Positions 23,583-37,282 of a DNA stretch of 64,000 nucleotides are shown one piece after another. A program made the translations under genes and the position numbers. The notes beneath the pieces were generated by a model. That model was not told where the DNA came from. It made no database searches and saw only the letters and a program-made list of their open reading frames with translations. Within the stretch, counting starts at the first letter, position 1; the number at the start of each line of letters is the position of its first letter. The stretch comes from Flavobacteriaceae bacterium (GTDB taxonomy: Bacteria > Bacteroidota > Bacteroidia > Flavobacteriales > Weeksellaceae): positions 322 to 64,321 of the forward strand of contig JAISSC010000225.1 of assembly GCA_031273305.1 (NCBI GenBank). The letters are read 5' to 3'.

Positions 23583-24593
23583 ATGAAAGAATATAATAAT
23601 TTGGTCAAAGATATTAAAAACAAAAATTTTTTACCTATTTATTTTTTAGAGGGGGAAGAACCTTTCTATATCGACAAAATAAGCAGATTATTGGAAGAAA
23701 ACGTTTTGACTGAGGAAGAAAAAGCGTTTAACCAGAATATTATCTACGGAAACGAGACAGATGTAGACCAAATCGTTTCTCTGGCTAAACAGTTCCCTAT
23801 GGGGGCTGACAAGCAGTTGATAATAGTAAAAGAAGCAAAAAATCTCGCTTTCGAAAAATCCGAAACCTTTGAAAACTATATAAAAAATCCGCAGCCCTCC
23901 ACCATACTGGCGATTAATTTCAAATACAAGTCTCTGGATAAACGCAAATCCCTGACCAAATTACTGGGAAAACAAGGATATATCTTTTCCGGGGAGAAAC
24001 TTTACGACAATCAGGTTCCGGGTTGGATTGGTTCGCTCTGCCAATCTCTGGGAATAGAGATCGATGAGAAATCAAAAGCCTTGCTGGCTGAATTTTTAGG
24101 AACGGAATTATCCCGCATTGACAATGAAATCCGCAAATTACAGATGATTTTAGGCAGTCCAAAAAAAATAACCCCTGAAATCATTGAGCAAAATATTGGC
24201 ATCAGCAAAGAATACAACAACTTTGAGTTAAGGAAGGCTCTTGTAGAAAAAAACATCACCCAAACATATAAAATTATTGATTACTTTGAGAAAAACCCGA
24301 AAGCCAATCCGATGGTACTTACTTTCGGCACTTTGATTAGTTTATTTACCAATATTCTGATTGTGCACACACTTCCTGTAAAAACTCCCCAAAATATTGC
24401 AAAAGAATTGCGTATCAATCCGTTTTTTGCCAATGAATATCTGACCGGAATCAAAAATTATTCACTAAAAAAAACCACTGCCTGCATTGCTTACCTTCGA
24501 AATGCAGATATGAAATCCAAAGGAGTGAATAGTTCTTCACAGGCTACCACCAAAGACATTTTAATGGAAATGGCATATAAGATCTTACACTAA
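23583..24593 (+). CDS. holA: DNA polymerase III delta subunit
   Basis: PIYFLEGEEPFYID, FNQNIIYG, FPMG, IGISKEYNNFEL. Confidence 0.95.
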   Translation: MKEYNNLVKDIKNKNFLPIYFLEGEEPFYIDKISRLLEENVLTEEEKAFNQNIIYGNETDVDQIVSLAKQFPMGADKQLIIVKEAKNLAFEKSETFENYIKNPQPSTILAINFKYKSLDKRKSLTKLLGKQGYIFSGEKLYDNQVPGWIGSLCQSLGIEIDEKSKALLAEFLGTELSRIDNEIRKLQMILGSPKKITPEIIEQNIGISKEYNNFELRKALVEKNITQTYKIIDYFEKNPKANPMVLTFGTLISLFTNILIVHTLPVKTPQNIAKELRINPFFANEYLTGIKNYSLKKTTACIAYLRNADMKSKGVNSSSQATTKDILMEMAYKILH

Positions 24594-24654
24594 ACTACAC
24601 AATCATGTCCGTAAAATTTTTTAGGTAAATTTATGATTATTCCAAAACTTTTTA

Positions 24655-24662
24655 TACATTTG
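24655..24662 (+). promoter_or_regulatory. -7 promoter box of the his operon
   Basis: TACATTTG matches TAnnTTTG, 22 nt before the leader ATG. Confidence 0.65.
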
Positions 24663-24684
24663 TATCATCAAATAAAAACCAAAG

Positions 24685-24741
24685 ATGAACAAATTACATT
24701 TACATCATCATCATTTAATAGCTTACGTTCAGGTGAGGTAG
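24685..24741 (+). CDS. hisL: his operon leader peptide MNKLHLHHHHLIAYVQVR
   Basis: 5 CAT codons (4 consecutive) in an 18-codon ORF directly upstream of a terminator and hisG. Confidence 0.85.
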   Translation: MNKLHLHHHHLIAYVQVR

Positions 24742-24773
24742 ATGATTGATTTTGTATTTGTACGAAAATAAGC

Positions 24774-24807
24774 AAAAACCGCCTGAATAGTCCGGCGGTT
24801 TTTTTAT
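24774..24807 (+). terminator. his attenuator terminator
   Basis: aaaaaccgcc/ggcggttttttt; its 5' arm (cgcctgaa) can alternatively pair with ttcaggtg at 24728-24735 in the leader. Confidence 0.85.
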
Positions 24808-24846
24808 GCAGGATGTATTCAGGTTTAAAAAGAGAAAAATAGAACT

Positions 24847-25704
24847 ATGAGCAAACTGAAAATTGCCGTTCAAAAAAGCGGACGGTTAAGCGGAAAATCG
24901 TTGGATTTACTCCGCGAGTGTGGAATTAAAATTTCTAATAGCAATCAAAAACTCATGACGGTTTCTTCCAATTTCCCTATTGAAATTTTATTTCTCAGGG
25001 ATGACGACATTCCGCAGTATGTAGAGCAAAACGTCGCAGACATCGGGATTCTGGGAGAAAATGAAGTTTGGGAAAAAAACCGGAAAGTAACGACAGTTCG
25101 AAAGCTGGGTTTCGGAAACTGCCGATTGTCTCTGGCTATTCCCAAAGAGGAAAACTATACCGATTTGACGTATTTCAACCACAAAAAAATAGCCACTACC
25201 TATCCGAATATTTTACGAGATTTTTGCACCAAAAAGCAATTGGAAGTAGAAATTGAGGAAATCGGGGGTAGCGTGGAAATTGCACCTGGGATAGGGCTGG
25301 CGAACTGCATTTTCGACATTGTCAGCACCGGAAGCACCCTGTTGATGAACGGATTGAAAGAAGTGCAAACCGTCGCACAAAGCGAAGCCGTTCTTATTAA
25401 AACACCCGAATTATCCGAAGAAAAACAAGCAATTTTAACCCAATTACTATTCCGTATTCAGGCAGTAATGTATTCCAAAGAAAACAAGTATATCTTGCTC
25501 AATGCGCCTAACAATGCAGTGAAACAGATTATCAGCCTGTTACCCGGAATGAAAAGCCCTACCGTACTTCCTTTGGCGGAAGAAGGCTGGAGCAGTATCC
25601 ATTCCGTGATAAAAGAAGATAAGTTTTGGGAGATTATCGACCAATTACAAGATTTAGGAGCACAAGGAATTTTAATTATTCCGATTGAAAAAATGATTAC
25701 TTAA
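24847..25704 (+). CDS. hisG: ATP phosphoribosyltransferase (long form)
   Basis: IAVQKSGRL, LRDDDIP, GSVEIAP, DIVSTGSTL, PGMKSPTV. Confidence 0.98.
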   Translation: MSKLKIAVQKSGRLSGKSLDLLRECGIKISNSNQKLMTVSSNFPIEILFLRDDDIPQYVEQNVADIGILGENEVWEKNRKVTTVRKLGFGNCRLSLAIPKEENYTDLTYFNHKKIATTYPNILRDFCTKKQLEVEIEEIGGSVEIAPGIGLANCIFDIVSTGSTLLMNGLKEVQTVAQSEAVLIKTPELSEEKQAILTQLLFRIQAVMYSKENKYILLNAPNNAVKQIISLLPGMKSPTVLPLAEEGWSSIHSVIKEDKFWEIIDQLQDLGAQGILIIPIEKMIT

Positions 25705-25814
25705 AAAACAAATGAAAGACTAACACATTAAATCAGACTTTTCAAGGCATATCAGGAAGACCAGCCTGATAATTAATGACCGGTCGAAAATCATCAATCA
25801 AGAATAGAGAAAAT

Positions 25815-27107
25815 ATGAAAGTAACAAAATATCCCGAAAAAGAACTTTGGCAAGAGTTCACCATACGACCTGAAACCCGAAAAATTTCTTTGCAGGAAAC
25901 AGTTCGTGAGATATTTGAGGAAGTAAGAACATCAGGTGATGAAGCACTGAAAAAATACACCTTAAAGTTCGACCACGTAGCACTTTCCGACATAAAAGTA
26001 TCCCAAAAAGAACTTGAAGAAGCAGAGAATCAACTTTCCGAAGGATTAAAAAAAGCGATTCTTCAAGCTAAAAATAATATTGAGAAGTTTCACAGCTCAC
26101 AAAAAGAACAGATTCAAACAGTTGAAACCCAAACCGGAGTGAAATGCTGGCGAGAAGCCCGTGCGATAGAAAAAGTCGGACTGTACATTCCCGGAGGAAC
26201 AGCTCCCTTGTTTTCAACCGTGTTAATGCTCGGTGTTCCCGCAAAAATTGCAGGATGTAAACAAATTGTGCTTTGTACTCCCCCCGATAAAAACGGAAAA
26301 ATTCATCCCGCCATTCTATTCGCTGCACAAACCATCGGAATATCGGAAATCTACAAAGCAGGAGGCATTCAATCCATCGCCGCATTGACTCTGGGAACAG
26401 AAACCATTCCTTCCGTGTACAAGATATTCGGTCCCGGAAATCAATACGTAACCGCTGCCAAGCAATATGCTCAGAATTTTGGCCTTAGCATTGATTTACC
26501 TGCCGGTCCGAGCGAAGTTTTGGTTATAGGAGATGCCCAAGCCCGCCCTGATTTCCTCGCTGCCGATTTGCTGTCTCAGGCAGAACACGGAGTTGACAGT
26601 CAGGTTATTTTCCTCACTACGGACACTATCATTCTGGATAAAACCCTTGCTGCCATAGAAGTACAATTAAAAACCCTGCCGAGAAAGGAGATTGCTGAAA
26701 AAGCATTGGAGAACAGTCGGGCAATTTTGCTTTCCAACATAGACGAATGTATAGAATTTAGCAACTTATATGCCCCTGAACACCTGATTTTAGCGGTGGA
26801 AGATGCGAAGAATCATATTCCGAAGATCGGAAATGCAGGTTCGGTTTTTTTAGGAAATTACAGTTGTGAAAGTGCCGGAGATTATGCCAGCGGTACCAAT
26901 CATACCCTGCCGACTAACGGATATGCTCGTAATTATAGCGGTGTTTCTTTAGACAATTTTATTAAGAAAATAACCTTTCAGGAACTCTCTCAGGAAGGAT
27001 TGAGGAACATAGGAAAAACTATTGAACTCATGGCTGAAGCCGAGCAGTTGCACGCTCATAAAAATGCAGTAACTATCCGGTTGAAACAGGCAGATGGTAA
27101 GATATAA
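25815..27107 (+). CDS. hisD: Histidinol dehydrogenase
   Basis: GLYIPGG, GPGNQYV, PAGPSE, LSQAEHG, GDYASGTNHTLPT; start taken at ATG 25815. Confidence 0.98.
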   Translation: MKVTKYPEKELWQEFTIRPETRKISLQETVREIFEEVRTSGDEALKKYTLKFDHVALSDIKVSQKELEEAENQLSEGLKKAILQAKNNIEKFHSSQKEQIQTVETQTGVKCWREARAIEKVGLYIPGGTAPLFSTVLMLGVPAKIAGCKQIVLCTPPDKNGKIHPAILFAAQTIGISEIYKAGGIQSIAALTLGTETIPSVYKIFGPGNQYVTAAKQYAQNFGLSIDLPAGPSEVLVIGDAQARPDFLAADLLSQAEHGVDSQVIFLTTDTIILDKTLAAIEVQLKTLPRKEIAEKALENSRAILLSNIDECIEFSNLYAPEHLILAVEDAKNHIPKIGNAGSVFLGNYSCESAGDYASGTNHTLPTNGYARNYSGVSLDNFIKKITFQELSQEGLRNIGKTIELMAEAEQLHAHKNAVTIRLKQADGKI

Positions 27108-27135
27108 AATTAATTGTAAAATATTAACTAAAAAC

Positions 27136-28161
27136 ATGAAAAACATACACCAACTTGTACGCCCAAATATCCTTAACTTAAAACCTTATTCCAGTGCAAG
27201 AGGAGAATCGGGAGGAGCAGAAGGTATCTATCTGGATGCCAATGAAAATCCTTTCGGGGAGAATAATCGCTATCCCGACCCTTACCAGAATATCCTGAAA
27301 CAGAAGATAAGTGAACTAAAAGATATTTTGGTTGAGAATATTTTTATCGGGAACGGAAGTGATGAAATTATTGACCACATCTATCGTATATTTTGCAATC
27401 CGACGAAAGATAAAGCAATGATATTTAATCCTACTTTCGGAATGTATCAGGTAGCCGCAGACCTCAACGAAGTAGAGATCATTGATATTCCGCTTACTTC
27501 TGATTTTCAAATCAATATCAAAGAAGCTCAGAAGTATTTCAATGACGAACATCTGAAAGTAGTAGTCATTTGCACTCCTAACAATCCGACCGGAAACGAC
27601 ATACGGCAGCAGGATATTGACTTCATTCTCAATAACTTTAACGGAATTACGGTTATAGACGAAGCCTATATAGATTTCTCCCGACAGGAATCTTACCTAA
27701 ATAAATTGGAACAATACCCTAACCTGATTGTTTTCCAGACGTTGAGCAAAGCATGGGGACTTGCCGGAGCAAGGATAGGAATGGCGTATGCCCATGCAGA
27801 GATAATTCAGTTGTTAAACAAAGTGAAGCATCCTTACAACATTAGTTCCTTAAATCAGAAAGCCGCTTTGGAAGTTCTGAACAGCACGGAGGAATTTGAA
27901 CAAAGGAAAGCAGTAATTTTATCCGAAAAAGAAAAAATACGGCAGGAACTGGAAAGACTTCCTTTCGTAATCCAAATCTATCCTTCAGATGCGAACTTTT
28001 TTCTAGTTGAATTTTCCGATGTAGATAAAATATTTACAAAACTATTAAAACAGGGAATTATCGTACGTAATCAATCAGCAAGAATTAAAAATAGCCTGAG
28101 GATAACCATAGGAACTCCTGAAGAGAATCAAAAATTACTTCAAATACTGAAAAAATTATGA
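27136..28161 (+). CDS. hisC: Histidinol-phosphate aminotransferase
   Basis: [43 protein letters not shown]. Confidence 0.97.
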
Positions 28162-29252
28162 AAAAAGTACTTTTTATAGACAGAGACGGAACGCTGGTGA
28201 TAGAACCGCCGACAGATTATCAGCTGGATAGTCTGGATAAACTCGAATTTTATCCGGGAGTATTCCAAAATCTGTCGAGAATTTCCCTCGAACTGGACTA
28301 TGAACTGGTTATGGTAAGCAATCAGGATGGGTTGGGAACCGATTCTTTTCCCGAAGATACCTTTTGGCCTGCACAAGATAAAATCATACAAGCCTTTAAA
28401 AATGAGGGCGTTGTATTCTCCGAAATCCTTATCGACCGAAGTTTCGAGCATGAAGATCTTCCAACACGAAAACCCGGAATCGGTATGTTAACTCATTACA
28501 TCAAAGCGAATTATGACCTGCCAAATTCCTATGTGATTGGAGACAGGCTTACCGATGTTCAACTAGCAAAAAATCTGGGCAGTAGATCCATTTACTTAGG
28601 TACGGAAAAAAACAGCGGTGCGGACTTGGTTACACAAAACTGGGCGGAAATATACAGGTTTCTTAAACAGCAACCACGTAAAGCAAAAATTATCCGCAAT
28701 ACCAAAGAAACCCAAATCTCTGTGGAAATCAACTTGGACGGTTCAGGAAAAAGCTCTGTGCATACGGGAATAGGTTTTTTTGACCACATGTTGGATCAGA
28801 TTGCCCGACATGGAAATATAGACCTGTTCATTACTGTGAACGGAGATTTGCAGGTGGATGAACATCATACGGTAGAAGACACCGGAATTGCGTTAGGAGA
28901 AGCCGTTTTACAGGCACTGGGGAGTAAAAAAGGAATCGAGCGATACGGTTTTTTGCTTCCTATGGATGATTGTCTGGCGCAAGTAGGAATTGACTTCGGC
29001 GGAAGACCCTGGATTGTTTGGAACACGGAATTTAAACGAGAGAAAGTCGGAGAGCTTCCTACTGAGATGTTTTTTCATTTTTTTAAGTCATTCAGTGACA
29101 ATGCCAAATGCAATCTCAACATCAAAGCCGAAGGAGAGAATGAACACCATAAAATAGAAGCAATTTTCAAGGCTTTTGCCAAAGCCGTGAAGATGGCAGT
29201 AAAACAAACCGATGGCAATTTTGCCATCCCCAGCACCAAAGGAAGTCTTTAA
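28158..29252 (+). CDS. hisB: Bifunctional histidinol-phosphatase / imidazoleglycerol-phosphate dehydratase
   Basis: [11 protein letters not shown] domain plus [21 protein letters not shown]. Confidence 0.97.
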
Positions 29253-29290
29253 GGAAAATTATAAAACATAAGAATTATAAATCCACAAAT

Positions 29291-29869
29291 ATGATTGCAG
29301 TTATAAAATACAACGCAGGAAACATAAAATCGGTGCAGAATGCTCTGGCTCGATTGCAGGTGGAATCAATGGTTACCGATGATGAAGACCTGATTAGAAA
29401 GTCGGATAAAGTAATTTTTCCGGGAGTAGGAGAAGCAGGAACCGCTATGCAATATCTTCGGGAACGAGGTTTGGATACACTGATTAAATCCCTGACACAG
29501 CCATTTTTGGGAATTTGTCTGGGGCAGCAGTTGATGTGCAGTCACTCCGAAGAAGGAAATACCGAATGCCTTAATATCTTTAAGGCTAAAGTTAGAAAAT
29601 TTCCGAATACGGGAATCGTTCCCCACATGGGCTGGAATAACATTTACGACTTAAAAGGAGAAATTTTCAAAAATAACAGGGAAAACGACGATGTATATTT
29701 TGTACACAGCTACTACGTGGACTTGTGTGAAGAAACCACAGCAAAGTGCGATTATATTCTGCCGTTTAGCGCAGCCCTGCAAAAAGATAATTTTTATGCC
29801 GTACAGTTTCACCCCGAAAAATCTGCGGATGTGGGGGAAAATATTTTACGGAGTTTTTTGGAAAGGTAA
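29291..29869 (+). CDS. hisH: Imidazole glycerol phosphate synthase glutaminase subunit
   Basis: FPGVG, LGICLG, PHMGWN, YFVHSY, QFHPEKS. Confidence 0.98.
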   Translation: MIAVIKYNAGNIKSVQNALARLQVESMVTDDEDLIRKSDKVIFPGVGEAGTAMQYLRERGLDTLIKSLTQPFLGICLGQQLMCSHSEEGNTECLNIFKAKVRKFPNTGIVPHMGWNNIYDLKGEIFKNNRENDDVYFVHSYYVDLCEETTAKCDYILPFSAALQKDNFYAVQFHPEKSADVGENILRSFLER

Positions 29870-29883
29870 AATGGAAATAATAA

Positions 29884-29891
29884 TACCTTTG
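29884..29891 (+). promoter_or_regulatory. Internal -7 promoter box preceding the PIN-GNAT gene
   Basis: TACCTTTG, 9 nt before ATG 29901. Confidence 0.5.
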
Positions 29892-29900
29892 TAATTAAAT

Positions 29901-31403
29901 ATGAAAGCATTACTCGACACAAATATTATCATTCACCGAGAAGCCTCAAAGGTTATCAATCAAGATATAGGTATTTTATATCGTTGGTTGGAACGGGCTA
30001 AATATACAAAATGCATTCACTCTCTATCGATTGCCGAAATTGAGAAATATCACAATCAGCAGACTGTTGACACTTTTCATATCAAATTGGATAGTTACGA
30101 ACAGATTGAAATTCCGTCACCTTTACAGTCGGAAGTTAAAGCCGTTTCTGACAAGATAGATGTTAATCAAAATGATAAGAACGACTCTTTACTTTTGAAT
30201 GAAGTTTTTGTCGGGCGGGTTGATATTCTAATTACCGAAGACAAGAAAATTCACAAAAAAGCTGCAGAATTAGGAATTGAAGACAAGATTTTTACGATAG
30301 ATTCCTTTCTGGAAAAGACTTTTGCCGAACACCCGGAATTGGTTAATTACAGAGTTCTAAATGTTCAAAAGTTGAAATTCGGACGAATAAATCTTGAAGA
30401 CGACTTTTTCGACAGCCTCAAAGAAGATTATGCCGGTTTCGATAAATGGTTTATAAAAAAATACGATGAAGAGGCCTACATTACCGTAAACTCAAACAAT
30501 GGACTTTTGTTGTCATTCCTGTATTTAAAAGTTGAAGAAAAAGACGAAAATTACACTGATATCACTCCTTTATTTTCAAAGAAGAGACGATTAAAAATTG
30601 GCACGTTCAAAGTTATCAACAACGGATTTAGACTTGGCGAACGTTTCATGAAAATCATTTTTGATAATGCACTCAAAAATAATGTGGAAGAAATTTATGT
30701 GACAATCTTTGATAAAAGGGAAGAACAGCAAAGATTGATTGGCTTGCTCGAACAATGGGGATTTATTTATTGGGGCAATAAAGGAGAAGAATTAGTTTAT
30801 ATAAGGGATTTTAGTCATAAAACCGATGAAACGCAATTAAAACAATACTATCCATTCATTTCACGCAATAAAGATTGTTTCATTGTTCCCATTTATCCCG
30901 ATTATCACACGGAACTATTGCCTGATTCGATTTTAAATACTGAGTCGCCAGAAGAGTTTATCGAAGATTTTCCTCATAGAAATGGTATAAATAAAGTATA
31001 TGTTTCACGAGCATTAGAGCCTCACCCCAAGAAAGGAGATATTTTAGTATTTTATAGGACTGGTGGATATTACAAAAGTGTTATTTCTACAATTGGTATA
31101 GTTCAAGAAATTCGATACAATTTTAGTGATGAAGAAGATTTTGTACATTATTGTAGAAAAAGCAGTGTATTCCCCGAAAAGCAACTTCGAGAAATGTGGA
31201 GATATTCCTTAAATAAACCATTTGTAATAAGATTTTTGTATATCTATTCGTTCCCAAACAGAATAAATATGAAAGAATTGATTGATTTACAAGTGCTAAA
31301 TGGCATAAATGATGCACCTCGAGGATTCAGAAAAATAACAACAGAACAATTTAATAAGATATTAAAAGCAACAAAAAGTGATGAAAGTTTTATTGTCGAT
31401 TAA
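29901..31403 (+). CDS. PIN nuclease - GNAT acetyltransferase - EVE/PUA-like fusion protein
   Basis: N-term LLDTNII...NDKND...LITED (PIN acidic residues); middle FLYLKVE...LKIGTFKV.NNGFRLGERF...IYVT...LEQWGF (GNAT); C-term FIVPI.P.YH..L.PD...INKVYVS...KGDILVFYRT...ISTIGIV (EVE/PUA-like). Confidence 0.8.
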   Translation: MKALLDTNIIIHREASKVINQDIGILYRWLERAKYTKCIHSLSIAEIEKYHNQQTVDTFHIKLDSYEQIEIPSPLQSEVKAVSDKIDVNQNDKNDSLLLNEVFVGRVDILITEDKKIHKKAAELGIEDKIFTIDSFLEKTFAEHPELVNYRVLNVQKLKFGRINLEDDFFDSLKEDYAGFDKWFIKKYDEEAYITVNSNNGLLLSFLYLKVEEKDENYTDITPLFSKKRRLKIGTFKVINNGFRLGERFMKIIFDNALKNNVEEIYVTIFDKREEQQRLIGLLEQWGFIYWGNKGEELVYIRDFSHKTDETQLKQYYPFISRNKDCFIVPIYPDYHTELLPDSILNTESPEEFIEDFPHRNGINKVYVSRALEPHPKKGDILVFYRTGGYYKSVISTIGIVQEIRYNFSDEEDFVHYCRKSSVFPEKQLREMWRYSLNKPFVIRFLYIYSFPNRINMKELIDLQVLNGINDAPRGFRKITTEQFNKILKATKSDESFIVD

Positions 31404-31749
31404 ACCCGAATTTGCGTTTAAAATTTTTGACGGGACAAAAAAATATGAATTTCGCAAAAGTATATTTAAGCGCAAAGACGTTACGAAAGTGATCGTTTAT
31501 GCCTCTTCTCCTGTTCAACGTGTAATAGGGGAGTTTGAAATCAAAACCATTTTAAATAATGATACTGAAACTGTTTGGGACATTACCAAACGTTTTTCCG
31601 GAATTACCAAACAATTCTATGATGAATATTTCGCCAATAAAGATGAAGCCTACGCTATTCAGGTTGGTAGAGTAACAAAATATGATACTCCGAAACTTTT
31701 ATCTGACTATAATTTAGATTTTGCCCCACAATCATTTGTCTATCTATGA
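31381..31749 (+). CDS. ASCH-domain protein
   Basis: LLSIKPEFA.KIFDGTKKYEFRK (GxKxxExR), YASSPV.RVIGEF, APQSFVY; overlaps the upstream gene by about 23 nt. Confidence 0.88.
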   Translation: MKVLLSIKPEFAFKIFDGTKKYEFRKSIFKRKDVTKVIVYASSPVQRVIGEFEIKTILNNDTETVWDITKRFSGITKQFYDEYFANKDEAYAIQVGRVTKYDTPKLLSDYNLDFAPQSFVYL

Positions 31750-32519
31750 AAAAAATTATTCTTATTTCGTTGATTTCAAATTTTGTTTTAGCTCAAACCA
31801 AACATGATTTAGAAGGGTTATGGATAATTGATGAAATCATTGGGTTATATACGGTTGATGAATATAATTTATCAAAAGTTAGCGAACAAGATGCTTCAAA
31901 AGGATGGGTATATGGAAAAAGTATAACATTTAGCGATGGCACATTTAATTCCCATTATTCTGCTGAGTGTGGTAATGATTGCTTCCCTTCTTCTAAAGGA
32001 ACTTTTAAAATGGTAAACAATACTCATATCCAATTAAAATTAAAACTTGTGGAGATAAGAGGTGGCTGCCCACATTCAAGAGACTCAAATCACCGTGATC
32101 TGGGTATTTTCCTTATAAAAAAACTGGAAAACGGTTATCGACTCATTCGTTCTTCAAGTACAGAATCAGATATACAACAAGAAAAATACTCTGAAATTTT
32201 AAATAATTTACCACAGATAAGTGGTGGTGGCTCCGGATTAAATTGGATTGAGTTAGACTACCTAACACGCGAAAAAGAAGATTCAGAAATTCTAAAGATC
32301 GGATTAAAAAATATTCCTAATTTCGATCCTCAAAAGGCACAATTAGTTTACACTAAATATTTACACTATGACAATAAAGGTTTTGTCTTTAAATACGAAA
32401 ATAAAATACTGGTTGCTATTTATGCTGTTGGAGCTTCCGTATTTGCCTTATATGATAAAGAAGAATTTTGTTTAAATACGAAAGATGTCGAAAAATTAAT
32501 TCTAAGTTCAAAATTATAA
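31746..32519 (+). CDS. Secreted hypothetical protein
   Basis: Signal peptide MKKIILISLISNFVLA-Q, GLW motif, CGNDC; ATGA overlap with the ASCH gene. Confidence 0.75.
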   Translation: MKKIILISLISNFVLAQTKHDLEGLWIIDEIIGLYTVDEYNLSKVSEQDASKGWVYGKSITFSDGTFNSHYSAECGNDCFPSSKGTFKMVNNTHIQLKLKLVEIRGGCPHSRDSNHRDLGIFLIKKLENGYRLIRSSSTESDIQQEKYSEILNNLPQISGGGSGLNWIELDYLTREKEDSEILKIGLKNIPNFDPQKAQLVYTKYLHYDNKGFVFKYENKILVAIYAVGASVFALYDKEEFCLNTKDVEKLILSSKL

Positions 32520-32522
32520 AAC

Positions 32523-33239
32523 ATGAGAATCATACCCGCAATAGATATTATCAACGGAAAGTGTGTACGTCTGACCAAAGGAGATTACAGCACGGAAAAA
32601 GTATATCGTGAAAACCCTTTGGATGTTGCCAAAGAATTTGAAGATGCCGGATTGGAATACCTACATTTGGTTGATTTGGACGGAGCAAAATCCAGTCGAA
32701 TAATTAACCATAAAACCTTATATAAAATAACTTCCCAAACCGGCTTAAAAGTAGACTTTGGCGGCGGACTGAAAAGCGATGAAGACATACGCATCGCCTT
32801 TGAAAACGGAGCCAGTCAGATAACCGGCGGAAGCATTGCCGTGAAAAACCCGGAGATATTTCAATCATGGATAAAAGAATACGGAAGTTCTAAAATTATT
32901 CTGGGAGCAGACTGCAACCACCGGATGATTGCAACCCACGGTTGGTTGAAATCTTCCTCTTTGGACGTAATCGACTTTATCTTGGAATATGAGGAAAAAG
33001 GGATAGAATACGTAATTTGTACCGACATTTCCAAAGACGGGATGTTAGAAGGAACTTCAAATGAGTTATATAAAGAAATCCTTGAGAAGACGAATATAAA
33101 ACTCATCGCAAGCGGAGGCGTATCTTCGATAGAAGATTTGCATTTGTTGAAAGAGATTAGTTGTGAAGCTGTTATCATCGGAAAGGCGATATATGAAAAT
33201 AAGATCACTCTGGAAGAACTTACAGAATTTCGAAGTTAG
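32523..33239 (+). CDS. hisA: ProFAR isomerase
   Basis: [40 protein letters not shown]. Confidence 0.98.
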
Positions 33240-33354
33240 AATTACATCAGGACGATTTGGGAATACAAGATTTGAGGTGCTAAATTTTAAAATCATAATT
33301 CCAAATAAAAAAAATGTTCTAATTTCGTACTTTAAACTTAAAACCTAAGAAAAC

Positions 33355-34113
33355 GTGTTAAAAAAGCGGATAATTCCCTGTCTGGACATTAAAAACGGAC
33401 GCACCGTGAAAGGGGTGAACTTTATAGAACTGATTGATGCGGGAGACCCGGTAGAATTAGCTAAAGCCTACGTACAACAAGGTGCTGATGAACTGGTATT
33501 TTTGGATATTACCGCTACCATTGAAAATCGTTCTACTTTATTGCATCTGGTGGAGAGAATTGCCCATGAGATCAATATTCCGTTTACCGTAGGAGGAGGA
33601 ATTAACTCTGTAAATGATGTTTCCGCCCTTATTAAAGCGGGAGCAGATAAAGTAAGTGTTAATTCTTCAGCCGTTAAACGACCTGAGTTGGTCTCTGAAA
33701 TAGCCGGACAATTCGGGAGCCAATGCACGGTAGTAGCCATTGACACAAAGAAAGAACAAGACGGGTGGAAGGTTTATACGCACGGAGGGCGCACCCCTAC
33801 CCCCATATTTACCCTTGCATGGGCGAAACAAGTGGAAGAACTGGGCGCAGGAGAGATTTTGCTCACTTCCATGAATAATGACGGTACTAAGAATGGTTTT
33901 GCTCTGGATATTACGAATGAAGTTGCCCAATTGGTAAACATTCCGGTGATTGCCTCCGGAGGAGCAGGAACCAAAGAGCATTTCCTTGATGTATTTTCCC
34001 AAACCAAAGCCTCTGCCGCACTGGCTGCAAGTATCTTTCATTTTAATGAGATCCCTGTCCCTAAACTTAAACAATATTTAGCTAACCAAAACATACCCAC
34101 ACGATGGAAATAA
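33355..34113 (+). CDS. hisF: Imidazole glycerol phosphate synthase cyclase subunit
   Basis: [44 protein letters not shown]. Confidence 0.98.
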
Positions 34114-34694
34114 ATTTTGATAAAGATAGCGGATTAGTCCCTGTGATTATTCAAAACATCTTGAATAAACAGGTTTTAATGCTGGGCTACATGAATCGGG
34201 AAGCAGTTGAAAAAACTCAAAAAGACGGAAAGGTCACCTTTTTCAGCCGGAGCAAAAACCGCTTATGGACGAAAGGGGAAACCTCAGGGAATTACCTTTG
34301 GGTAAAGGAAATACGCATTGATTGCGATGCTGATACTCTGCTAATAAAAGTGATTCCCGAAGGAATCACCTGCCATACGGGAAGTTATTCATGCTTCGGA
34401 GAAAAAGAAACTCAGGGATTTTTATATGATTTACAGGAGGTTATCAGCCAGCGTATTGATAAAAAAACGGATAATTCTTATACGTACAAATTATATCGAA
34501 AGGGCATAAATAAAATAGCGCAAAAAGTAGGAGAAGAAGCCGTAGAATTGGTTATCGAAGCTAAAGACAACGATGAGGATCTGTTTAAAAATGAAGCTGC
34601 CGATCTGCTTTACCATTATCTTGTTTTGTTAAAAGCCAAAGGATTTAAATTGGAAGATGTAGAACGCATATTGGAGGAAAGGCAGATTAAATAA
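34104..34694 (+). CDS. hisIE: Bifunctional PR-AMP cyclohydrolase / PR-ATP pyrophosphatase
   Basis: [37 protein letters not shown]. Confidence 0.97.
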
Positions 34695-34834
34695 ATTGCG
34701 CACATTCTTGGTTTCATGCCTTATATTTTCTTATTTACCTTAAACCAGGATACCATAAATGCCTCTTTTTGAAAATTTATATTTTTCTATCCTGCAAAAA
34801 ATCACTAAAATTGTACTAAATTGTAATCCACCAT

Positions 34835-37282
34835 ATGAAAGTAGTAAAATTCGGAGGAACTTCCGTAGGTTCGAGCCAGAGTATTCGTTGCATATTGGAC
34901 ATTCTGCAACAGAAATATTCCTCAGGAGAAAAATTCATTGTTGTTTCATCAGCCATGAGCGGAATCACGAATCTTTTAACGGATTTAGCTCAAACGGCGT
35001 CTAAAGGCAATGATTTTAAATCCGGGCTTACGGAAATTGAACAAAAACATTTTACTGTTATCAGGGAAATGATAGAGGTGAAAAATCAAAATCCGGTTTT
35101 TACACAAATCAGAATATATATCAACGAGATAGAGGACTTACTTCAGGGCGTTTACAGCTTACGTGAACTAAGTGCTCAAAGCAAAGATTTTATCTTAAGC
35201 TATGGAGAAAAATGCTCGACTTTCTTAATAAGCCGAATTGCAAAACAATATTTCCCCGAAAGTATTTTTGTTGATGCCTCAGACCTGATAAAAACAGACA
35301 GCAATTTCGGAAACGCTAAAGTGGACATTCCGAGAACGGAGAAACTTATCCGGGAGTTTACGGATTCCCACAAAGATAATATACTTTTCATAACCGGGTT
35401 TATCGCCTCAAACGATGACAATCGGATAACCACATTGGGAAGAGGAGGAAGCGATTATACAGCAGCCCTCTTCGGAGCAGCAATAGACGCCGAAGAAATA
35501 GAATTATGGTCGGACGTTGACGGAATGTTAACCGCAGACCCCAAAATAGTAAAAAAAGCATTCTCTTTATCGGAGCTTTCCTATACTGAAGCAATGGAAC
35601 TTTCCTATTTCGGAGCCAAAGTAATATATCCTCCGGCAATGATTCCTGCTTTCAGGAAAAAAATCCCTATCCTTCTTCGTAATACTTTCAATCTCGATTT
35701 CAAAGGCACACGGGTGCAGGAGAGCATAGAAAAGAATCCTTATCCCATACGGGGTATTTCTTCCATCCGTGAGATAAGCCTTATTAATATTACAGGAAGC
35801 GGTATGATAGGTAAGATTGGATTCAGCGGAAAACTTTTTTCCCTCTTAGCCCGTGAACAGATCAATGTAGTTTTAATTACCCAATCTTCTTCCGAGCATA
35901 GCATCACTTTTGCTATCGAACCGAAAGACGTACCGAAAGCCAGAACCTTATTCCATACCGAATTTGAACTGGAACTGGAAACCAACAAGCTAAATCCGCC
36001 TACTATAGAAGAAAACTTGGCTGTATTAGCTATCGTAGGAGAAAATATGAAGCAAACACCGGGAATATCAGGCAAGCTCTTCCATGCACTAGGAAGAAAC
36101 GGGATAAATATTCACGCAATCGCTCAGGGTTCTTCGGAATACAATATTTCGGTAATCATAAAACGAAAAAACATATCCAAAGCCCTGAATGCCGTACATG
36201 ATGCTTTTTTCACGGAGTTAACCAAAACATTGCACGTTTTTAATGTAGGAACGGGAAACATAGGCTCTACTCTTTTTCGGCAAATACAAAAACAAAGTAC
36301 TTTCCTTCGGGAGAATAACGATATTGAGGTAAAAATTGCAGGAATCAGTAATTCCAAAAAGATGATCATTGATGAAAACGGTATCGATCTGGAGAATTGG
36401 AAAGATGCTTTAGATAATGGAGAAAACGTTGATTTAGAACAATTTGTACAAAAAATTAAATTACTGAATCTATCCAACTGCGTATTTATAGATAATACCG
36501 CCAGCCCGATTCCTCCCAAATTCTATAAAAGTCTTTTCGAGTCCAATATCTCTGTAGTCACCTGTAATAAAATAGCCAATTCCTCATCTTATCAGGAATA
36601 CAAAACCCTTAAAGACACTGCCCGAAGGCGCGGGGTCGATTTTTATTACGAAACCAACGTAGGAGCAGGATTGCCTATCATACGGACATTGAAAGACCTC
36701 ATGGCAAGCGGAGACCGTATCATAAAGATAGAAGCTATTTTGAGCGGAACTATTTCTTACATCTTCAATAACTTCAAAGGAGAGGCTTCTTTTTATGAGG
36801 TAGTGAAAAAAGCCCACGAATTAGGATATACCGAACCTGACCCGAGGGATGATCTAAGCGGGAAGGATTTTATGAGAAAGATGATGATTTTAGCCCGTGA
36901 TGCCGGCTATCCGACAGAAGAAGAGGAGGTCAAATTAGGAGCCATTCTTCCTGATAATTGTATGAAAGCTCCTTCCGTAGAAGATTTCTATGAAGAACTC
37001 AAAAAATCTGATTCTTATTTTAATGATATAAAAGAACAGGCGGAAAAAGATAACAAGACTATCCGGTATATCGGGAAATTGGAAGACGGAAAAGCCTCCA
37101 TTAATTTGGAACTGGTAGACAGCTCTCATCCTTTTTACAACCTTTCCGGAAGTGATAATATCATATCTTTTACTACGGAAAGATACAAGTATAACCCTTT
37201 AGTCGTAAAAGGACCGGGAGCAGGAGCTGAGGTAACTGCTGCGGGGGTTTTTGCTGATTTAATCAATGTGGGGGCGGATTAA
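34835..37282 (+). CDS. thrA: Bifunctional aspartate kinase / homoserine dehydrogenase I
   Basis: KFGGTSV, TLGRGGSDY, two ACT domains, GTGNIG, YETNVGAGLP, GPGAG.EVTA. Confidence 0.97.
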   Translation: MKVVKFGGTSVGSSQSIRCILDILQQKYSSGEKFIVVSSAMSGITNLLTDLAQTASKGNDFKSGLTEIEQKHFTVIREMIEVKNQNPVFTQIRIYINEIEDLLQGVYSLRELSAQSKDFILSYGEKCSTFLISRIAKQYFPESIFVDASDLIKTDSNFGNAKVDIPRTEKLIREFTDSHKDNILFITGFIASNDDNRITTLGRGGSDYTAALFGAAIDAEEIELWSDVDGMLTADPKIVKKAFSLSELSYTEAMELSYFGAKVIYPPAMIPAFRKKIPILLRNTFNLDFKGTRVQESIEKNPYPIRGISSIREISLINITGSGMIGKIGFSGKLFSLLAREQINVVLITQSSSEHSITFAIEPKDVPKARTLFHTEFELELETNKLNPPTIEENLAVLAIVGENMKQTPGISGKLFHALGRNGINIHAIAQGSSEYNISVIIKRKNISKALNAVHDAFFTELTKTLHVFNVGTGNIGSTLFRQIQKQSTFLRENNDIEVKIAGISNSKKMIIDENGIDLENWKDALDNGENVDLEQFVQKIKLLNLSNCVFIDNTASPIPPKFYKSLFESNISVVTCNKIANSSSYQEYKTLKDTARRRGVDFYYETNVGAGLPIIRTLKDLMASGDRIIKIEAILSGTISYIFNNFKGEASFYEVVKKAHELGYTEPDPRDDLSGKDFMRKMMILARDAGYPTEEEEVKLGAILPDNCMKAPSVEDFYEELKKSDSYFNDIKEQAEKDNKTIRYIGKLEDGKASINLELVDSSHPFYNLSGSDNIISFTTERYKYNPLVVKGPGAGAEVTAAGVFADLINVGAD

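Follow-up and report, generated by a model that had tools for sequence, protein, structure and literature searches.

An intact gene pair of the (PIN)-GNAT-EVE + ASCH family in the histidine operon of a Flavobacteriaceae bacterium

Introduction

Proteins of the (PIN)-GNAT-EVE type, accompanied almost always by an ASCH partner and often by an AAA_17 gene, are described in the comparative genomic study of Bell, Wolf and Koonin, which classes (PIN)-GNAT-EVE + ASCH operons as putative toxin-antitoxin (TA) modules and states that no module has been characterised (Bell et al., 2020, BMC Biol 18:159; PMC7641849). The same '(PIN)-GNAT-EVE + ASCH' operon is catalogued by PADLOC as the phage-defence candidate PDC-M11, the PDC systems being 145 untested candidates identified through 'guilt by embedding' in BREX, DISARM and type I restriction-modification (R-M) loci (Payne et al., 2024, bioRxiv 10.1101/2024.01.29.577857). 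Here we describe two genes, A and B, located between hisH and hisA in a 64,000-nucleotide stretch (the window) of contig JAISSC010000225.1 from a Flavobacteriaceae bacterium (assembly GCA_031273305.1). Gene A encodes a 500-residue protein predicted to combine PIN, GNAT-fold and PUA-like domains, and gene B encodes a stand-alone ASCH protein. An earlier note on this DNA had described the architecture as one noted in comparative genomics and left uncharacterised, in agreement with both Bell et al. and the PADLOC entry.

The ASCH component has biochemically studied relatives. ZmASCH (ZMO0922, PDB 5GUQ/5GUS; Kim et al., 2017) is a Mg-dependent single-stranded RNA (ssRNA) nuclease in vitro (PMC5615036), and a preprint reports that 19 of 19 ASCH proteins assayed, ZmASCH among them, remove N4-acetylcytidine (ac4C) from tRNA in vitro, the Lys and Glu of the conserved octapeptide being essential in the Glu-type enzymes TthASCH, EOLA1 and TRIP4 (bioRxiv 10.64898/2026.02.27.708502). 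The explanation that we lean towards overall is a horizontally acquired PDC-M11 conflict module residing in a variable slot of the his operon, with gene B acting on nucleic acid. Taken on its own, a conflict or defence role (anti-phage, TA-like, or both) appears reasonably probable.

Results

The predicted product of gene A (29901–31403, + strand) matches positions 1–500 of the 501-position PADLOC profile PDLC04422 (PDC-M11A) over residues 1–499 (E 2.3e-218) and aligns end to end with 33 homologs; the product of the overlapping gene B, which ends at 31749 on the same strand, matches PDLC04425 (PDC-M11B; E 1.9e-50). Judged by these profile matches, the A-B pair is almost certainly a member of PDC-M11, the '(PIN)-GNAT-EVE + ASCH' operon. 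The pair belongs to an already catalogued family, with at least 5,800 relatives spanning phyla, and not to a new one, and the present copy is intact.

An AlphaFold2 model of the gene A protein, built on 34 homologs, has a mean predicted local distance difference test score (pLDDT) of 85.4. Structural matches by VIA (Z 13–15) place three domains in one chain, in the order PIN (residues 1–138; 29901–30314, +), GNAT-like (residues 148–306; 30342–30818, +) and EVE/PUA-like, the last an ASCH/EVE-type β-barrel (residues 321–495; 30861–31385, +). The PIN assignment is supported by VIA matches spanning residues 1–138 to VapC15, VapC21 and the VapC of VapBC1 (Z 12.6–13.0) and by a Pfam PIN_3 match to residues 2–116 (E 6e-5) that lies under the gathering cut-off. 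The motif residues D6-T7-N8, E46, D92/D95 and I-T-E113-D114 are all present, and the acidic residues D6, E46, D92/D95 and D114 are invariant in 34 homologs with identities down to 34%.

The middle domain superimposes on Naa60, Naa50 and NatC (VIA Z 13–14.3), with root-mean-square deviations (rmsd) of 2.6–2.9 over 145–154 aligned residues for Naa60 and Naa50, and the Foldseek matches of gene A include the tRNA-acetylating toxins TacT2, AtaT and GmvT. Within the loop NGFRLGERF, residues G242, G246 and E247 are invariant across the same homologs. This cofactor loop (F243-R-L-G246-E-R248) departs from the canonical Q/R-x-x-G-x-G/A after strand β4: the first position is aromatic or aliphatic, the central Gly is invariant, and the final position, Gly/Ala in the canonical motif, is occupied by Arg, or by Cys in the homolog that is most distant. 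The model has pLDDT values below 50 at residues 241–243.

The C-terminal domain aligns with ZmASCH (5Y6B) over 139 residues (residues 324–492 of gene A; VIA Z 14.9, rmsd 2.3), and the Pfam EVE model (PF01878) matches residues 375–489 below threshold (18.3 bits versus a cut-off of 23; E 0.0024). The more cautious label for this predicted domain is 'PUA-like', since the EVE match falls below its cut-off and the best structural match is an ASCH protein. It does not have the GxKxxExR octapeptide of ASCH proteins, and residues 340–360 form a highly conserved loop that is modelled at low confidence. When the sequence profiles of the GNAT and PUA parts were compared with all solved structures, nothing was found below E 0.1; both assignments are made from the predicted fold, with the weak Pfam EVE match in addition.

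Much of what the earlier note had claimed for gene A from its letters holds on this evidence. A 500-residue open reading frame (ORF) does lie between hisH and hisA within the his operon, as both the ORFs and the NCBIfam models indicate; the PIN motif set that it had called intact (DTN, D, ITED) is invariant to the depth of the alignment; and its domain borders of ~1–140, ~150–305 and ~320–495 are close to those given by structure. The middle and C-terminal regions do model as GNAT and PUA-like, the check that it had suggested. Two of its labels need narrowing: the GNAT domain with a variant loop stands as a fold and as a loop but finds no GNAT match at the sequence level, and of the proposed EVE/PUA C-terminus the PUA-like fold is retained while the EVE label falls short of the Pfam cut-off.

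Gene B (+ strand) starts at GTG 31378 (123 residues) or ATG 31381 (122 residues), the latter being the likelier start because homologs align from residue 2, and its overlap with gene A is 23–26 nucleotides (nt). Its product exceeds the Pfam ASCH threshold, and its profile matches ZmASCH (5GUS) over the full length (E 3e-18). The octapeptide G18-T-K20-K-Y-E23-F-R25 (31432–31455, +; residues 18–25) is of the GxKxxExR or 'GKER' type, so that the earlier description of an overlapping, stand-alone ASCH gene with the motif GTKKYEFR was accurate. G18, K20, E23 and R25 are invariant among 28 partners; for the invariant sites of A and B taken together, this extends down to 34–42% identity. The tested ZmASCH residues Tyr47 and Ser128 correspond to Y40 and S118 of gene B, both invariant, and Lys53 of ZmASCH to Gln46. 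Gene B retains the ASCH fold and the octapeptide Lys/Glu pair of the Glu-type ac4C amidohydrolases. The former argument that gene B, having Glu where YqfB has its Thr, might only bind its ligand is no longer good, because Glu-type ASCH proteins are now reported to be active with Lys and Glu essential (bioRxiv 10.64898/2026.02.27.708502) and gene B keeps both.

Fused relatives of gene B (proteins P0121–P0191) join the ASCH domain to HNH_5, GNAT (including a 378-residue ASCH-GNAT-ASCH protein), AAA_17, HsdS, a C5 DNA methyltransferase (Dcm), McrBC and helix-turn-helix (HTH) domains, and GxKxxExR is kept in 67 of 71 of them. The occurrence of the gene B subfamily in fusions with HNH_5, HsdS, C5 DNA methyltransferase, McrBC and HTH domains raises the alternative that the module acts on DNA like R-M or modification-dependent restriction, with the GNAT domain marking a base, the PUA-like modules reading it and ASCH serving as a sensor or regulator and not as an eraser. 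Bell et al. (2020; PMC7641849) infer DNA binding from the HsdS and HTH fusions and credit the idea of DNA-base acetylation to Iyer et al. (2013). Action on DNA would also suit the R-M genes that neighbour homologs and the definition of PDC-M11 by embedding in BREX, DISARM or type I R-M loci. However, the sole nuclease of the pair is a PIN domain, which is RNA-cutting in VapC-type proteins, the closest characterised ASCH protein, ZmASCH, acts on ssRNA and tRNA in vitro (PMC5615036; bioRxiv 10.64898/2026.02.27.708502), and there is no DNA-acting partner in the present window. We consider such a DNA-directed system unlikely.

The linkage, neighbours and decay of relatives were counted over 80 species-level loci. 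Gene B lies directly 3′ of gene A in 79 of these, mostly with an overlap of ~20 nt, and in the 80th the contig ends too early. The check on homologs proposed in the earlier note, namely linkage to ASCH and the mode of inheritance, gives a constant neighbour and a patchy distribution. The two partners do not, however, appear to co-diverge strictly. The 25 loci whose gene A is ≥78% identical to the present copy form one branch in the A tree (SH-like approximate likelihood ratio test, SH-aLRT, 99), whereas their B proteins fall into two clades (7 + 18) mixed with the partners of distant A proteins, and an approximately unbiased (AU) test on the B data rejects keeping the 25 loci together (Δ log likelihood 67, p 0.007). 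An example is the locus L052, which has 59% identity in gene A but 77% in gene B. Partner swapping is suggested by these trees; the discordance is suggestive, not final, because the gene B alignment is short (123 columns). A complex prediction for gene A with gene B scored 0.01, under the mark, and counts neither for binding nor against it.

These observations bear on the simplest interpretation of the pair as a type II TA system, in which A would be a toxin that acetylates aminoacyl-tRNA and/or cleaves RNA, and B would neutralise it by direct binding, with no dedicated anti-phage role. The tight translational coupling and near-universal linkage of the two genes are what such a system would show; GNAT toxins are among the structural matches of gene A, the operons are classed as putative TA by Bell et al. 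(PMC7641849), and one relative bears the GenBank labels GevT toxin and GevA antitoxin (a database annotation). Discordant A and B trees are nevertheless unexpected for partners co-evolving at an interface. Type II systems do not typically place the toxin first or use an antitoxin that resembles an enzyme and has an invariant motif of catalytic type, and no ribbon-helix-helix (RHH), DUF1778 or VapB-type antitoxin is present. A plain type II system therefore seems to us rather improbable as a full account of the pair, and the discordance of the trees favours, within the conflict-module reading, enzymatic rather than lock-and-key antagonism.

The surroundings of the relatives are consistent with a role in conflict for a part of the family. 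The commonest accessory gene encodes a ~350-residue protein just upstream of gene A in 33 of 80 loci (e.g. L046 1271–2326). Its model (pLDDT 88) shows an all-β sandwich of a generic kind (Z 9–11) followed by two long C-terminal transmembrane helices, and Pfam, PADLOC and Atlas gave it no name. A different, unnamed 316-residue protein with one C-terminal transmembrane helix is located between A and B in five loci (e.g. L063 2148–3098). In the passages of Bell et al. (PMC7641849) consulted, we found no mention of either protein. AAA_17 is found in 20 and HNH_5 in 12 of the 80 loci, and other recurrent neighbours are HNH_4, a methyltransferase-HIT fusion, a type III restriction subunit and R-M methyltransferases. 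Of 124 large neighbours tallied with PADLOC, a minority were type I, II and III methyltransferases, PbeA, SoFic and PDC-S04. The Sulfitobacter copy adjoins HsdR and ArdC near a relaxase, on a relaxase-bearing element.

A form without the PIN domain occurs in phage PhiR47_2 (L103 2516–3944), where GNAT-PUA and ASCH genes labelled 'GevT toxin' and 'GevA antitoxin' lie directly downstream of cI on the same strand. Lambda carries rexAB at this position directly downstream of cI. The names GevT/GevA are database annotation, and we found no paper on them. Proximity to defence or R-M genes is a property of part of the relatives and not of the copy in the present window; the PADLOC and neighbourhood analysis that had been suggested for the locus returned the PDC-M11 match, and R-M neighbours in some relatives, but no defence island in the present genome.

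In the host's family, 8 of the 200 other genomes covered carry homologs, and among 10 congeners there is one remote homolog only (28% identity), elsewhere in its genome. Several orders of Bacteroidota contain relatives with 82–88% identity, and further relatives come from Spirochaetota, Elusimicrobiota, Pseudomonadota and Bacillota. The family is widespread, patchy and horizontally moving, and the present copy appears to be horizontally acquired. Compared with copies from other orders, gene A has 83–87% amino-acid identity while fourfold-degenerate sites are 33–50% identical, a pattern that points to purifying selection of some strength and not to a transfer in the recent past.

The pair lies among genes of histidine biosynthesis: NCBIfam equivalog models identify hisG, hisD, hisC, hisB and hisH 5′ of the insert and hisA, hisF and hisIE 3′ of it. 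The left flank of the insertion slot is hisH (29291–29869, +; TIGR01855, E 9e-62) and the right flank is hisA (32523–33239, +; TIGR00007, E 5e-77). Between gene B and hisA lies ORF3 (31746–32519, +), which encodes 257 residues with a signal-peptide-like N-terminus (MKKIILISLISNFVLAQT...) and is a resident of the slot. Its ATG overlaps the stop codon of gene B (ATGA), and translational coupling links ORF3 to the ASCH gene on one side and to hisA on the other. The spacings are 31 nt for hisH-A, −23 nt for A-B, −4 nt for B-ORF3 and 3 nt for ORF3-hisA. ORF3 matched none of the families in Pfam, NCBIfam or PADLOC. Being absent from 80 of 80 homologous loci, it does not belong to the A-B module. The G+C content is 0.325 for gene A, 0.331 for gene B and 0.305 for ORF3, the lowest of the region (0.21 at third codon positions), compared with 0.36–0.44, or about 0.40, for the his genes and 0.37 for the assembly.

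The hisH-hisA junction (window 29870–32522) is variable among the 10 congeners. In five of them hisH and hisA abut (G004, G006, G008, G009, G010); in others the junction holds an unrelated, unnamed 180-residue ORF (G003), a 224-residue ORF of the PDDEXK_4 family (G005) or a homolog of ORF3 alone (G002; 56% identity), and in two the operon is broken after hisH (G001, G007). The junction loci in congeners are L084 2138–2680, L091 2069–2743, L086 2137–2868, L083 and L087. When the locus is aligned with G002, the A-B insert has its left edge between ~29886 and the gene A ATG and its right edge at the ORF3 ATG. Around the insert, no integrase, insertion sequence or terminal repeats were found, and a search for attachment-site-like or flanking repeats gave only short AT-rich chance matches. 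The TATGAAA present at both junctions was considered as an insertion trace and set aside: it is just the Met-Lys start of two genes and indistinguishable from chance.

The operon begins with a leader (24685–24805, +; 5′ of hisG) that comprises an 18-codon His-rich peptide, MNKLHLHHHHLIAYVQVR (24685–24741), preceded by a TACATTTG box at 24655 and followed, before hisG, by a G+C hairpin and T-run at ~24779–24805. Read from the sequence, the his operon carrying the cassette is of the attenuator type, with the classical layout, in a Bacteroidota-like genome. Rfam models over 24000–35000 gave chance-level sub-threshold matches only (RcsR1 at 24705–24805, 32 bits versus 60, and two snoRNA models). 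The cassette is probably transcribed together with the attenuator-controlled his operon, because the gaps are short, hisA, hisF and hisIE lie downstream, and no convincing terminator or −7 box is found inside: between 30198 and 32661 there is neither a convincing terminator nor a TAnnTTTG on the + strand. A search for public sequencing runs covering 29291–33239 listed none. The TACCTTTG box (29884–29891, +), which the earlier note had taken as belonging to the cassette itself, is indeed present and matches the Bacteroidota −7 consensus TAnnTTTG, but it lies only 9 nt 5′ of the gene A ATG. As an own promoter it was rejected as a family feature, TAnnTTTG occurring within 60 nt upstream of gene A in only 4 of 73 loci; locally it is plausible and unproven. 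TAnnTTTG is enriched in the window (104 occurrences against 82.5 ± 8.6).

Location in an attenuator-controlled operon would also suit a physiological, non-conflict RNA-modification pair, for example one tuning tRNA acetylation or turnover in amino-acid starvation. Such a starvation role would explain expression with the his genes, gene A is under very strong purifying selection, and ASCH proteins deacetylate tRNA ac4C (bioRxiv 10.64898/2026.02.27.708502). The sporadic distribution (8 of 200 genomes, with the remote homolog elsewhere in one of 10 congeners), the low G+C content relative to the flanks, and the unrelated cargo that the same slot holds in congeners argue against a housekeeping function of this kind. 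Moreover, relatives are found in a his operon in none of the 80 loci, and many are beside R-M, HNH or mobile elements. We regard a purely physiological role as very unlikely, and return below to the acquired conflict module.

Discussion

In the mechanism that we propose for the conflict module, the gene A protein would be the effector. Its PUA-like domain would dock on RNA or DNA at a nucleotide that is probably modified; transfer of an acyl group, to the bound nucleic acid or to charged tRNA, would fall to the GNAT-fold domain; and the PIN domain would cut RNA. The gene B ASCH protein would be the antagonist or gate, acting on nucleic acid either by removing the acyl mark or by binding or cutting the marked RNA, so that its control of A would not depend on a lock-and-key, co-evolving protein interface. 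In this scheme we infer the restraint of A by ASCH and the eraser role of ASCH, as well as a part in defence or toxicity, acyl transfer and the identity of the substrate. We judge writer/eraser chemistry, taken separately, to be doubtful.

A more elaborate version, which we regard as speculative and improbable, is a self-contained circuit of writer, reader, eraser and executor in which acylation of nucleic acid would act as a signal in immunity or stress. The GNAT domain would write the mark, which might be N4-acetylcytosine or another acyl group of this kind and might be carried by tRNA, other RNA or DNA; the fused PUA-like domain would read it and license the PIN nuclease, and ASCH would erase it in uninfected cells. 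A fall in tRNA-His charging would, in the present genome, turn the circuit on along with the his operon.

Several points weigh against the proposal of a conflict module with this chemistry. At the level of the GNAT domain, Pfam gave no GNAT match to gene A at E ≤ 1, and a profile of residues 145–310 found no GNAT among solved structures at E ≤ 10; acetyl-CoA binding by gene A is unproven, because the GNAT assignment is made at the fold level only and an Arg stands where the canonical loop has Gly/Ala. At the level of ASCH, retention of the motif in proteins fused to DNA nucleases, HsdS and Dcm would fit a base-binding pocket as well as a hydrolase, and the GNAT-ASCH fusions appear to sit awkwardly with a simple writer-versus-eraser antagonism. 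The defence and toxicity roles are proposed through guilt by association, our literature search having found no experimental work on any family member. The present copy is not in a defence island but flanked by hisH and hisA, and the accessories of its relatives (AAA_17, HNH_5 and the 350-residue membrane protein) are absent anywhere in the source assembly, which is 84% complete. Conservation of 83–88% across orders is unusual for fast-evolving defence genes.

Gene A is, finally, disrupted in 8 of the 80 loci (L018, L022, L044, L065, L074, L075, L077, L078), with gene B intact in seven of these. The disruptions are in-frame stops and frameshifts, apart from that in L078, where 2.2 kb with a 694-residue ORF is inserted, and some may be assembly errors in metagenome-assembled genomes. 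An intact A with a broken B was seen in 0 of 80 loci. A toxin-like asymmetry of decay, with A broken and B intact, was considered and rejected, as it is not significant (P ~0.2) given that A is four times longer.

The interest of the locus lies in the family to which it belongs, a large, cross-phylum one that is listed by defence-annotation tools and for no member of which we found a published activity. The 2026 ASCH report (bioRxiv 10.64898/2026.02.27.708502) makes the hypothesis of an acyl writer (GNAT) and eraser (ASCH) with a PIN executor testable for the first time. If true, it would introduce a chemical principle that is new to bacterial conflict systems, and would supply natural proteins that write, read and erase acyl groups on nucleic acid. 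The present copy adds little alone; it shows that the minimal two-gene form persists intact without accessories, inside an essential biosynthetic operon. Four points are added here: gene B is homologous to ZmASCH and carries the GKER motif, both of which are set beside the deacetylase data of 2026; the trees of A and B are discordant; a membrane protein is a frequent accessory; and the slot in the attenuated his operon is variable.

Compared with PDC-M11, or (PIN)-GNAT-EVE + ASCH, as described, the present pair has the same domain order, an overlapping ASCH partner and full-length hidden Markov model matches to both components, and the accessory gene AAA_17 and the R-M neighbours for which the family is known are seen among its relatives. 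In contrast, the present copy is the minimal two-gene form without AAA_17, HNH or R-M neighbours, in a his operon and not in a defence locus. In GevT/GevA of Escherichia phage PhiR47_2 (PV340567.1), as in unnamed copies from other lambdoid phages, Salmonella phage SopEPhi and the Lactobacillus prophage Lj965, a GNAT-PUA protein (36–39% identity over residues 147–499 of gene A) is followed by an overlapping ASCH gene. Unlike gene A, these phage forms have no PIN domain, and they are located in the immunity region, immediately downstream of cI.

ZmASCH is a full-length homolog of gene B, which has GxKxxExR in common with it but differs in having Gln46 for Lys53, and shares its fold with the C-terminal domain of gene A (Z 14.9). 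With the ASCH ac4C amidohydrolases, namely E. coli YqfB (PMC6972931) and the Glu-type TthASCH, EOLA1 and TRIP4-ASCH, gene B has the fold and the octapeptide Lys/Glu in common. These salvage or eraser ASCH enzymes are stand-alone proteins, whereas members of the gene B subfamily belong to operons of the conflict type and occur in fusions with nucleases and R-M subunits.

The GNAT toxins TacT, AtaT, KacT, ItaT and GmvT have the same fold as the middle domain of gene A, and the logic proposed here, acyl transfer blocking translation, would be the same. Gene A nevertheless differs from the type II GNAT toxins in that it has no sequence similarity to them, possesses a non-canonical cofactor loop and is fused to PIN and PUA domains. 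In TacAT, AtaRT and KacAT the antitoxin is an RHH/DUF1778 protein encoded upstream; the partner of gene A is an ASCH protein encoded downstream, and hisH lies upstream. The N-terminal PIN domain of gene A resembles the toxin of VapBC systems in its VapC-like fold (Z ~13) and four conserved acidic residues, but no VapB-type antitoxin was found (hisH lies 31 nt upstream), and the PIN domain is one of three in the chain. As in modification-dependent restriction enzymes such as the EVE-HNH protein VcaM4I (PMC7897488), a PUA-superfamily reader is fused to a nuclease, and relatives of gene B also occur as ASCH-HNH proteins. The nuclease of gene A is, however, a PIN domain of the RNase type and not HNH or PD-(D/E)XK, and a GNAT fold is placed between reader and nuclease.

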